DNA from: Clostridiales bacterium
GTDB lineage: Bacteria > Bacillota > Clostridia > TANB77 > CAG-508
Assembly: GCA_015056485.1 (NCBI GenBank)
Contig: SVGD01000005.1
Span: 19,799 to 83,798 of the forward strand
Direction: 5' to 3'
DNA: 64,000 nucleotides
Shown: in pieces, positions 19,201-20,605 of the stretch
How the letters are laid out: each line of letters opens with the position of its first letter
Numbering within the stretch: position 1 is the first letter of the stretch
Made by a program: the position numbers and the translations under genes
The notes under the pieces: generated by a model
What the model was told of the DNA's origin: nothing
The model's database searches: none
The model's input: the letters and a program-made list of their open reading frames with translations, nothing else

Positions 19201-19813
19201 TGAAATAAAGAGTCTAGGTAGTATAAATATTGATTCTATTGAAGAATACAAACAAACTAAAGAAAGATATGACTTCATGAGTGAACAAAGATTAGATTTA
19301 GAAACTTCTAGCACAAAACTTAAAAAAGTAATCGCAGATATTACTAAAACTATGAAAGAACAATTTTCAAAACAATTTAAAGTAATTAACAAAAACTTTG
19401 GAGAAGTATTTAAGGAATTATTTGATGGCGGACAAGCTGAATTAAAATTGATTGATGAAGAGAATATTTTAGAGTGTGGAATTGAAATAGAAGTTCAACC
19501 ACCAGGAAAGAAACTTCAAAGTATGAGCTTATTGTCAGGGGGAGAAAAAGCGTTAACAGCAATTGCGTTACTATTTGCAATATTGAAAATAAATCCAGCA
19601 CCATTCTGTGTGTTAGATGAAATTGAAGCAGCACTTGATGATGTTAATGTATACAGATTTGCTGATTATTTAAAGAAATTTACTAAAGATGTACAATTTT
19701 TAGTAATAACTCATAGAAAAGGAACAATGGAAGCGGCAGATACAGTTTATGGAATAACAATGGAAGAAAATGGGGTTTCAAAGTTGTTATCAATGAAACT
19801 TGACAAGAGATAA
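16256..19813 (+). CDS. smc: Chromosome segregation protein SMC
   Basis: 1185 aa. Walker A GPNGSGKSN, long coiled coils, hinge, signature LSGGEK, Walker B FCVLDEIEAALD. Confidence 0.95.
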   Translation: MYLKRLELQGFKSFADKTVLEFMPGITTVIGPNGSGKSNISDSIRWVLGEQSMKSLRGSKSEDIIFAGTQNRKSLGFAEASIVIDNSDGKLPIEYSEATVTRRIYRNGETGYFINKTPCRLKDVLELFMDTGIGKDGYSIIGQGKIDEILSNKSEDRRRIFEEAAGIVKYRTRKAESEKKLEQTKLNLLRINDILSEIEANIEPLKIQSEKAKKFLDLREELKSIEIGLFLYNIDIYKVKIEEIIKDIEIIRTQNEEEEKNLELLNEQKLSLKMELDEITSKVEEMQNLGFESSTKIEKINSEINVTNEKIANNNENCLRYEKEIEEVNIRIKELEEEKVSRIEKKETLGANRERFVTELEEKEKALEEITKKLSAEEALIEEKKREVESKTDLKYEKKELINTQDIKYENLEKREKTIKVEIVDTISELDEKRLIKSEISKGFTEIDNKRNECKKRLEQISTKKEEYESKTAEYDNKINNLTSEYRVKESKLKFLTDMEKEKEGYARSVKSLLLECDKNTGLNKGMHGVLANLISVPKEYETAIEMVLGLTLQNIVTDTEEDAKKLIEYLRTNNLGRASFLPISSVKGKKVDKLIKNGLGGVVGLASDLVKVDKKYEDIILNLLGRTVVVEDMDTAIILARQNKYGFKIVTLKGDIINPSGAISGGSVTQKSNGIIGRATGIKELEKDLKSLALKIEKIESEKEKYEKDSENVFEEITGIGIEMQEIEISHATEKQRMISIEETVTRLEKKLESLKTEQEQIGENKQKNREEREFLEKENIEIESLIENLSIEIKNFAEKNKDNQKYIDDLNFDITNLKISLTSFDESSLSLDEIISRIDSDIANYKNSINYKKEESEKAKLENETLKEQIVNLNSEIENIKAQVTNSSNIIEELKETRKVKNENLDKIDTDVINKYKVIEDLKNQISKLDVKKSKLDFELEQTVNKMWEDYEVTPNGLNDEYKKPENVAKTTKKVKELRDEIKSLGSINIDSIEEYKQTKERYDFMSEQRLDLETSSTKLKKVIADITKTMKEQFSKQFKVINKNFGEVFKELFDGGQAELKLIDEENILECGIEIEVQPPGKKLQSMSLLSGGEKALTAIALLFAILKINPAPFCVLDEIEAALDDVNVYRFADYLKKFTKDVQFLVITHRKGTMEAADTVYGITMEENGVSKLLSMKLDKR

Positions 19814-19834
19814 AGTTTATGGTAATATAATACA

Positions 19835-19980
19835 TATTTCAAATAAAGCTCTGTAAGAGCAAAGCTCCGTTATTGGAGAATTAAATAACATACTTCTAGG
19901 AGAGCAACACTCTCCTTTCGTTTGAGCATCCGTTTCGGGGTAGGAGACCATTTGTTAATGGTCTCCTATTCCCATTTTGT
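19835..19980 (+). ncRNA. Tandem small RNA, unit 1 (novel family)
   Basis: Promoter TTGACA (19800..19805), 17 nt, TAATAT (19823..19828), overlapping the smc stop. Hairpins GCTCT-GTA-AGAGC and CTCC-GTTATT-GGAG. Terminator GGGGTAGGAGACC...GGTCTCCTATTCCC plus T-run. Confidence 0.6.
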
Positions 19981-20052
19981 TAGAAATAATATTTTTATAT
20001 AATTATATATATAACACTTGACAAAAGAATTAAACTGTGTTAACATAATAAA

Positions 20053-20191
20053 TATTTAAAATATACTCTGTATAGAGTGAATTTCCGTCATAGGAGAGTA
20101 ATAAAAAGTTCTACTAAGGCTTTTTAGCCTGTGTCATAACTTTTTCCGGGGATGAGCGATCATTTATCAAATGGTCGCTTATTTCCATTTT
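20053..20191 (+). ncRNA. Tandem small RNA, unit 2
   Basis: Promoter TTGACA 20018..20023, 17 nt, TAACAT 20041..20046. Hairpins ACTCT-GTAT-AGAGT and TTCC-GTCATA-GGAG. Terminator GGGGATGAGCGATC...GGTCGCTTATTTCC plus TTTT. Confidence 0.6.
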
Positions 20192-20256
20192 AAGGATAAA
20201 ATTTAGGTGATTATAAAAAACTTGACAAAAAATAAAACGCGTGGTAACATAATATA

Positions 20257-20383
20257 TATTTCGATATCACTCAGTATTGAGTATATTATCCGTATTGGAA
20301 TAAGAATAGACAACTTCGTAAGGACTTGTTCCTGACTCTTTTCATAGCTGGGGTAGGAGACCGTTTGTCAACGGTCTCCTATT
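20257..20383 (+). ncRNA. Tandem small RNA, unit 3
   Basis: Promoter TTGACA 20222..20227, 17 nt, TAACAT 20245..20250. Hairpins ACTCA-GTAT-TGAGT and ATCC-GTAT-TGGA. Terminator nearly identical to unit 1. Confidence 0.6.
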
Positions 20384-20470
20384 CCCTTATTTGGGAATAA
20401 TACTTTGATTTGATATAAAAATATATAGAATGAACCTGACAGGGAAACAAAAAAATGTTAACATAAGCTA

Positions 20471-20605
20471 TATTTGACAAAGCTCTGTATAGAGCACTAA
20501 CTCCGTATTAGGAGTTGTGGGAGTGCGCAACAATTGTTATTTGTAAGCCATTCGAAAGTACTCCTACAAAGGGGGAGCCATCCATTTTTATGGTCGGCTC
20601 TTTCT
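20471..20605 (+). ncRNA. Tandem small RNA, unit 4
   Basis: Promoter CTGACA 20436..20441, 17 nt, TAACAT 20459..20464. Hairpins GCTCT-GTAT-AGAGC and CTCC-GTATTA-GGAG. The terminal hairpin GGAGCCATCCA...TGGTCGGCTC abuts the convergent asnB stop. Confidence 0.55.

Follow-up and report, generated by a model that had tools for sequence, protein, structure and literature searches.

Trans-acting small RNAs (sRNAs) of Bacillales such as RoxS/RsaE and FsrA are encoded by single-copy genes under Rex/ResD or Fur control, and RNAs of the DapZ/MicL type are derived from 3' untranslated regions (UTRs) with an internal promoter. Other sRNAs come in sets of siblings, of which OmrA/B, PrrF1/2, AbcR1/2, the csRNAs and Qrr1-5 are reviewed examples (PMC4211561). 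The LhrC RNAs of Listeria carry three UCCC/CUCCC motifs, in loop A, in a single-stranded stretch and in the terminator loop, and their binding of lapB mRNA involves the opening of stem A (PMC4132741). Here we analyzed a 64-kb stretch of a Clostridiales contig (64,000 nt of SVGD01000005.1; hereafter, the window) in which the 798-bp spacer between smc and a convergent asparagine-synthase-like gene (asnB) is made up of four co-oriented direct repeat units with a period of 204-218 bp (19800-20610, plus strand). We propose that these units are four paralogous genes for one new sRNA family and most likely act in trans as sibling regulators, a reading to which we give about an even chance of being right; we infer transcription, RNA ends, trans action, seed and targets from the sequence.

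Predicted promoters, folds and terminators of the four units

The initial annotation of this locus described four separate promoter-RNA-terminator units between smc and asnB, and our analyses of repeats, promoters and folds uphold that description from the sequence. The units share an overall identity of ~68%, and the likeness between copies is below 70%, which is why the program TRF did not pick them up. Every unit opens with a -35 box TTGACA (CTGACA in copy 4), a 17-nt spacer that includes TGn, and a -10 box TAATAT or TAACAT, and each is predicted to be read separately from a strong sigma-A-type, extended -10 housekeeping promoter (Table 1). The extended -10 and +1 region, TGNTAAYATAANNNATATTT, occurs exactly four times in the window, always within the array, and the DNA upstream of the -35 boxes is A/T-rich and unconserved between copies. 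Promoter 1 spans the smc stop codon (19811-19813), confirming an overlap that had been noted before, and its -35 box lies inside the final smc codons (K-L-D-K-R-stop); copy 1 therefore also lies in the smc 3' UTR, where it supplies the sole terminator after smc. Inspection by eye revealed no CodY, Fur or CiaR box, and no sigma-K-like CATAnnnTA over the -10 box, that was consistent across the copies. The -10 region (20038-20054 and the equivalent positions) reads TAACATAAnnnTA in copies 3 and 4, which fits the sigma-K-like pattern, while copies 1 and 2 and the copy in the near relative L013 miss it by one or two bases; we judge this match to be a coincidence of the AT-rich +1 region.

The base composition of the spacer also sets it apart. 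Its GC content is 31-35%, compared with 22-29% in the adjoining coding sequence and 28% in the window as a whole. Intergenic DNA of AT-rich genomes is normally not GC-richer than coding DNA, and elevated GC is typical for structured-RNA genes; the GC excess of the smc/asnB spacer over its flanks fits genes of this kind.

With RNA starts placed 6-7 nt downstream of the -10 box, the predicted starts and terminators give RNAs of ~135-145 nt (about 140). All four fold more stably than dinucleotide shuffles (z = -4.1 to -7.3; none of 200 shuffles equaled the real RNAs), and they share a layout of a 5' UAUUU tail, hairpin 1 (HP1), hairpin 2 (HP2), a copy-specific hairpin 3 (HP3), a terminator stem of 16-18 bp and a U-rich tail. 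HP1 is a 5-bp stem on CUCNGUA(U)NGAG with the loop GUA(U). HP2 has the form CUCC-GUNAUN-GGAG, with 4-5 bp and the loop GUNAUN; this CTCC/GGAG hairpin had been annotated throughout the array and indeed holds for copies 1, 2 and 4, but in copy 3 it is reduced to a degenerate UCC/GGA that is unformed in the minimum-free-energy fold. HP3 differs from copy to copy, as had been claimed, yet is not wholly variable, as an AGG...CCU foot is kept in three of the four copies and reads GGG...CC in copy 4.

Every unit has an intrinsic terminator of its own, at which its transcript is predicted to stop. These terminators had been called strong, which is borne out for copies 1 and 3, whose U-tracts pass a terminator scan, but not for copies 2 and 4, whose tails are weaker. 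The terminator tail of copy 4 adjoins the asnB stop codon. Minus-strand folds revealed that the copy 4 hairpin, read in the opposite direction, is the sole terminator-like structure after asnB and a poor one, followed only by UUU, so that transcription from asnB may continue into the array in antisense orientation.

The RNAs had also been thought to expose CUCC/CUCCU tracts, and this claim failed. In partition-function folds of the six distinct RNAs, every CUCC and GGAG lies in a stem (unpaired probability 0.00-0.03, and at most 0.02 for CUCC). UCCC occurs only in the 3' foot of three terminators, including those of copies 1 and 3 (unpaired 0.13-0.20), and in one linker of the L013 RNA, and CCCC is absent from the array RNAs. 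Conservation and a predicted lack of pairing coincide in the 5' tail, in the loops of HP1 (GUA(U)) and HP2 (GUNAUN) and in an A-rich linker; the remaining loops read UGUU/AUC.

Table 1 Coordinates of the array, its predicted parts and other features of the window
Feature	Position	Strand	Sequence or evidence
Promoter 1	19800-19828	+	TTGACA, N17 with TGg, TAATAT; 10/12 matches + TG (promoter scan)
sRNA copy 1	19835-19980	+	Fold -50.7 kcal/mol, z = -6.1; terminator scan; covariance model R2, 121 bits
Copy 1 HP1	19848-19860	+	
Copy 1 HP2	19865-19878	+	
Copy 1 HP3	19898-19916	+	
Copy 1 terminator stem	19937-19972	+	Followed by AUUUUGUU
Promoter 2	20018-20046	+	TTGACA, N17 with TGt, TAACAT (promoter scan)
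sRNA copy 2	20053-20193	+	Fold -48.2 kcal/mol, z = -7.3; R2, 138 bits
Copy 2 HP1	20065-20078	+	
Copy 2 HP2	20082-20097	+	
Copy 2 HP3 apex	20117-20130	+	Within a longer A/U stem
Copy 2 terminator	20148-20186	+	
Promoter 3	20222-20250	+	TTGACA, N17 with TGg, TAACAT (promoter scan)
sRNA copy 3	20257-20393	+	Fold z = -4.1; terminator scan; R2, 115 bits
Copy 3 HP1	20269-20282	+	
Copy 3 degenerate HP2	20289-20299	+	UCC GUAUU GGA
Copy 3 terminator	20350-20385	+	
Promoter 4	20436-20464	+	CTGACA, N17 with TGt, TAACAT; 9/12 matches + TG (promoter scan)
sRNA copy 4	20471-20610	+	Fold -51.1 kcal/mol, z = -5.5; R2, 98 bits
Copy 4 HP1	20482-20495	+	
Copy 4 HP2	20500-20515	+	
Copy 4 long HP3	20516-20568	+	
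Copy 4 terminator	20570-20605	+	
smc	16256-19813	+	Open reading frame (ORF) list; Pfam SMC_N + SMC_hinge; TIGR02168, 1085 bits
asnB (asparagine-synthase-like)	20612-22333	-	Pfam Asn_synthase + GATase_7; TIGR01536, 344 bits (cutoff 267)
Inverted repeat	22361-22547		45-nt arms, 89% complementary, 97 nt apart
rplU upstream region	22600-22738	+	Promoter TTGACA, 17-nt spacer, TGGTAAAAT
ORF divergent from smc	15652-16092	-	146 aa
Long palindrome	13903-14005		49-nt arms, 94% complementary, 5-nt loop
tRNA gene cluster	33217-33385	+	2 genes; Rfam gathering threshold
tRNA gene cluster	38108-38372	+	3 genes; Rfam gathering threshold

Covariation and copy number among relatives

A covariance model (R1) built from copy 2 and its ortholog was used to align all copies, and covariation was computed on the seven distinct sequences of this structure-guided alignment (A6). 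Standard pairs form in 95.8% of alignment cells, a share that falls to 39-56% if the pairing partners are displaced by 1-3 columns, and both-sided (compensatory) changes occur at 11 of 28 pairs; none of 500 shuffles attained such values. The covarying conserved hairpins of the initial annotation are thus confirmed. Compensatory swaps include GC/AU and UA/AU in HP1 and affect 7 of 18 terminator pairs, and RNAalifold, making its own prediction on the same model-fitted alignment, arrived at HP1, HP2 and the terminator as well, and 10 of its 26 pairs are compensatory. Because a terminator is expected to stay paired anyway, it is the covariation in HP1 and HP2 (two pairs each) that is informative. 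One such change separates orthologs: the outer HP1 pair is G-C in L013 where copy 2 of the window has A-U.

Identity between the paralogs is 80% in HP1, 66% in HP2 and in the terminator, 60% in the 5' tail and 33% in the central 60 columns. The middle has thus drifted or diversified, whereas the promoters, the 5' module and the terminator were retained. UCCGU...GGA is retained in copy 3 despite its lost HP2 pairing, and so the sequence matters beyond the stem alone. Likeness between the copies is mosaic (the terminators of copies 1 and 3 are 89% identical, and HP1 of copies 1 and 4 is 93% identical), which suggests recombination or gene conversion between copies.

Nine contigs of the same species carry a 798-bp spacer of identical layout; L001-L006, which were compared directly, are 99.7-100% identical to the window, and L016-L018 have four copies with model scores identical to those of the window. 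Near relatives were reached via AsnB homologs, whose identity drops from ~90% to ~62% and leaves L012 and L013/L014 as the informative ones. In these, AsnB is ~89-91% identical (asnB DNA, 88.8-89.8%), and a single unit lies in the same place. The L012 unit is of the copy-1 type, with a promoter that overlaps the smc stop codon, while the L013/L014 unit is of the copy-2 type (across the RNA, the ortholog in L013 shares 93% identity with copy 2) and has a remnant of the copy-1/copy-2 spacer ahead of it. The last sRNA terminator adjoins the asnB stop codon in the window as well as in L012 and L013. Copy number thus ranges from one to four and different lineages keep different paralogs, which argues for an ancestor with at least two copies and subsequent loss by recombination.

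The hairpins are therefore conserved, with compensatory change, in two near relatives, but they are absent at this locus further afield. In five distant relatives (L019, L020, L021, L145 and L146; Smc C-terminus 75-84% identical), we found neither asnB nor an sRNA after smc, the covariance models were silent, and smc directly precedes rplU or other genes. The sRNA and asnB either co-occur (window, L012, L013) or are jointly absent (the five distant loci). In L019 (5399-5533; Smc C-terminus 80%), the rplU promoter and leader come directly after the smc stop codon, whereas the window holds ~2.8 kb between them (19814-22620); the block of asnB and sRNA genes would either have been inserted in this interval or have been lost by deletion in L019. 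By these comparisons, the predicted sRNA family is genuine yet lineage-restricted, with a variable copy number.

Broader searches added no further members. The pattern ATAANNNATATTTN{7,9}CTCNGTAN{11,13}CCGT gave 5 single matches in unrelated taxa among 185,579 species genomes, and a wider pattern gave 11 single matches in a metagenome collection, none of them model-confirmed in either case. Both scans missed the window's own array, which shows that the collections lack the species, and the patterns also needed the -10/+1 region; the lack of matches is therefore weak evidence of absence. A looser pattern matched more than 80 loci on viral contigs, none with a covariance-model match better than E = 0.7, and blastn against phage and plasmid collections returned nothing. 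Within the window, model R2 run with filters off found no extra copies; its next best match (19.8 bits at 13838-13981) was rejected as a fifth copy because it falls on an unrelated long palindrome.

If transcribed, the array would represent a previously uncatalogued sRNA family of uncultured ruminant-gut Clostridia, a group in which, to our knowledge, almost no regulatory RNAs have been described. With four copies here, one in near relatives and differing paralogs retained, it would be a clean natural case of sRNA gene amplification and loss and could serve the study of how sibling sRNAs originate and diverge. Its practical value is limited by the uncultured host, the very narrow distribution and the familiarity of tandem sibling sRNAs as a theme.

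Candidate functions of the array RNAs

No Rfam 15 family matched the array at gathering thresholds when the whole window was scanned, and riboswitch and leader families were no exception; this agrees with the earlier view that the RNAs belong to no known family. When 19700-20700 was run through cmscan with the full set of 4227 Rfam 15 models, the matches at E<=10 were all sub-threshold and at chance level. These were RsaE (RF01820; 19.1 bits where gathering requires 79, E = 1.9), confined to the copy-1 terminator and the spacer that follows it; SprD (18.3 bits) and DUF805 (17.5 bits; the only cis-regulatory match, and a chance one), both on the opposite strand; and STnc250 (14.1 bits) on the plus strand, like the array.

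A resemblance to LhrC and to RoxS/FsrA had been drawn for this array, and it stands for organization (tandem copies in a low-GC Firmicute) but not for covariance models or unpaired UCCC. Like LhrC1-5, of which lhrC1-4 lie in tandem, the four units are homologous head-to-tail genes for sRNAs of ~100-150 nt, each with its own promoter and terminator. Both sets contain CU-rich sequence complementary to Shine-Dalgarno sites, but in the array RNAs it is buried in stems, and the array loops GUA(U), GUNAUN and UGUU/AUC differ from the UCCC-bearing loops of LhrC. LhrC is induced by LisRK, whereas the array promoters look constitutive and show no visible regulator site. Membership in LhrC was rejected, as no LhrC model match appeared at E<=10, the loops lack UCCC and every CUCC is in a stem. 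RoxS/RsaE and FsrA are likewise multi-hairpin Firmicute RNAs with a terminator, and UCUCCUAUUCCCAUUUU weakly resembles the RsaE 3' region, but a four-copy array differs from single-copy genes controlled by Rex/ResD or Fur; membership in RoxS/RsaE was also rejected, given the score below gathering and the absence of unpaired CCCC/UCCC regions from the array RNAs. The buried CUCC and the unmatched covariance models thus indicate that the array RNAs are not members of LhrC or RsaE and that the likeness is organizational only.

Among sibling sRNAs, OmrA/B are similar in being tandem paralogs with conserved ends and a divergent middle, and the Omr, PrrF and csRNA sets are similar in that copy number and arrangement differ between close relatives (PMC4211561). 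As with PrrH, read-through of the array might yield longer chimeric RNAs, given the weak U-tracts of copies 2 and 4. The array differs from these siblings in that it has no sequence or covariance-model match to them, and its four copies place it at the high end. Streptococcal csRNAs have a CiaR-type TTTAAG-N5-TTTAAG for a -35 box and an unpaired stretch complementary to the Shine-Dalgarno sequence or the AUG between two hairpins (partly PMC4211561). Membership in that group was rejected in view of the four canonical (T/C)TGACA -35 boxes and the absence of a csRNA model match at E<=10. Copy 1 recalls the DapZ/MicL type, since its promoter lies in the end of smc and one terminator is common to both, and in L012 this describes the whole locus; copies 2-4 and the single L013 copy differ in having wholly intergenic promoters. 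As in sibling sRNAs generally, there are at least two homologous non-coding genes with promoter and terminator and no conserved ORF. We regard the array as a genuine candidate for an sRNA family outside Rfam, tandem sibling sRNAs as such being already well known.

If the RNAs are trans-acting siblings, their conserved 5' module (UAUUU tail, HP1 and HP2) would form a shared recognition surface, with first contact made by the hairpin loops or the unpaired 5' tail. HP2, a weak stem of 4-5 bp, could then open and free its CUCCGU arm for a purine-rich, Shine-Dalgarno-like target, an opening that we propose by analogy with stem A of LhrC (PMC4132741). The divergent central domains (HP3 and linkers, ~33% identity) could give copy-specific targets, as proposed for OmrA/B (PMC4211561), dosage would be set by copy number, and copy 1 would double as the smc 3' UTR and terminator. 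This reading is favored by promoter elements that are invariant in the four units even though the RNA middles are only ~33% identical. Also in its favor are the low fold z-scores, the covariation, the HP1 change between orthologs, the GC excess of the spacer, the lack of a downstream gene or conserved ORF, and a layout like that of OmrA/B, PrrF1/2 and the csRNAs (PMC4211561). Several observations weigh against it. The unpaired C-rich or UCCC seed used by characterized Firmicute sRNAs is missing from these RNAs, whose CUCC is buried in stems, and what they offer instead are poor seeds because the conserved unpaired parts are short and AU-rich. The promoters look constitutive and have no conserved regulator site upstream, which is unusual among stress-induced base-pairing sRNAs. 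Covariation was scored on just seven distinct but related sequences, which had been aligned by fitting to the model, homologs having been seen in very close relatives only. Finally, the window holds no convincing target, although at ~2-3% of a genome it is uninformative on this point: duplex energies of the 5' module against every 60-nt segment on both strands gave no outlier (top z of about -3 to -4, inside coding regions), no ORF of >=60 aa in the window has an ACGGAG-type Shine-Dalgarno site ahead of it, and the window contains no HP1 or HP2 motif outside the array.

The main rival, which we consider unlikely, is that the RNAs are decoys whose HP1/HP2 or GGA sites sequester an RNA-binding protein, as do CsrB/Rsm or 6S RNA. 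Near-consensus, constitutive-looking promoters and a high, variable copy number would suit a decoy, and the best-conserved parts are hairpins that keep both loop and closing sequence (HP1 at 80%, and UCCGU/GGA even in copy 3). In three of the four copies, GGA also stands at three equivalent positions, namely the HP2 3' arm and the 5' arms of HP3 and of the terminator; copy 2 lacks the second of these, its HP3 5' arm reading AAGGC, and so has two GGA. However, CsrA-type sites show GGA in loops, whereas the GGA motifs here are predicted to be paired (unpaired ~0), except for the HP3 GGA of copy 3 at 0.52. With merely 2-3 GGA per RNA, nearly all in stems, and no Csr/Rsm model match, membership among CsrB/Rsm-type sponges was rejected; nor does a partner protein gene adjoin the array or any protein-binding sRNA family of Rfam match it. 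We know of no sponge RNA for a CsrA-like protein in Firmicutes. It also seems improbable to us that the units are abundant, copy-number-tuned decoys that sequester an RNA-binding protein or ribosomal component through HP1/HP2 or through stems with GGA/AGGAG, or dedicated partners of the AsnB paralog (which lacks its catalytic Cys, see below) that were gained or lost with it between smc and rplU. Quite unlikely, too, is a mainly local role in which the units terminate smc, insulate it from asnB and act antisense to read-through asnB 3' ends, with no targets in trans. The copy 1 promoter inside the end of smc, its terminator as the only one after smc, the recurrent position of the last terminator beside the asnB stop codon, the probable antisense entry of asnB transcripts past a hairpin followed by UUU only, and the joint presence or absence of sRNA and asnB would all be in keeping with such a role, but a single terminator would suffice for it, as the one-copy relatives illustrate, and it leaves the selection on HP1/HP2 and the four full promoters unexplained.

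The very narrow distribution, the range of one to four copies among near relatives and the mosaic similarity between copies could also reflect neutral or selfish amplification, in which an orphan promoter-terminator cassette was duplicated by unequal recombination and now drifts with no organismal function. We hold this to be improbable, as drift would degrade all elements equally, whereas the promoter hexamers, TG, the +1 ATATTT, HP1, HP2 and paired terminators are kept, with compensation, around middles of ~33% identity; terminal repeats, target-site duplications and matches in phage, plasmid and viral collections are absent as well. It is hardly credible that the units are cis-regulatory leaders, riboswitches or tiny-protein genes. 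A multi-hairpin RNA that ends in a terminator is superficially attenuator-like, but each terminator precedes the next promoter or the convergent asnB, which leaves no downstream gene to be controlled, and no riboswitch or leader family matches; the initial annotation's claim that neither an ORF nor a downstream gene is available for a cis role therefore stands, as no ORF is conserved. The start of the terminator 3' arm does read AUG GUC in copies 1, 2 and 4. The small-ORF reading was rejected since copy 3 has ACG in place of this AUG, which is located within the terminator stem-loop and opens a frame that overruns the transcript end; the apparent peptide similarity simply mirrors the terminator sequence.

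Flanking genes and other repeats

The host is known solely from metagenome assemblies, mostly from ruminant-gut collections, and its Smc cluster contains MBQ6992808.1. A SpoIVA gene lies near the array, which indicates that the host is a spore-former. The AsnB-like protein begins with MFITGY (at 22333), where homologs have MCGIVG, so that the catalytic Cys2 is replaced by Phe. It has 573 aa as against 615 aa, with ~40 residues of the glutaminase domain gone and a profile match that begins at position 68, and it is just ~62% identical to its closest full-length homologs. It is probably a paralog without glutaminase activity. On the other side of the array, the 146-aa ORF that diverges from smc is kept in contigs of the same species; it has no match in NCBIfam and only weak Pfam matches, to CarboxypepD_reg-like beta-sandwich domains.

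A long inverted repeat separates the asnB start codon from the rplU promoter. L012 lacks 22387-22535 and L013 lacks 22411-22502, so the repeat is a strain-variable palindromic insertion resembling a miniature inverted-repeat transposable element. Its arms hold an GGGGCGACCATTGGTCGTCC hairpin that resembles the sRNA terminators, and its only Rfam matches are sub-threshold ones to plant miRNA precursors, as for a generic long hairpin. The rplU upstream region beyond it has a promoter (Table 1) and a leader with GUAAGCCGCAUAAGUCGGG, and is conserved in comparison with L019. Rfam L21_leader did not match this region even at E<=1; the leader could be a divergent ribosomal-protein leader. An origin of the sRNAs from the rplU promoter and L21 leader was considered and rejected: TTGACA-N17-TGGTAA and CUGUAAG are common to both, but neither R2 nor Rfam links them, and we take the likeness as chance.

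The GC-rich, near-perfect palindrome scored best among the off-target matches of the sRNA model (19.8 bits) but shares no homology with the sRNAs. It overlaps the stop codon of an ORF ending at 13906, continues downstream of it, repeats GTGTCAGTG and far exceeds the length of an ordinary terminator. The window also contains two clusters of tRNA genes, unrelated to the array, that were detected at the Rfam gathering threshold.

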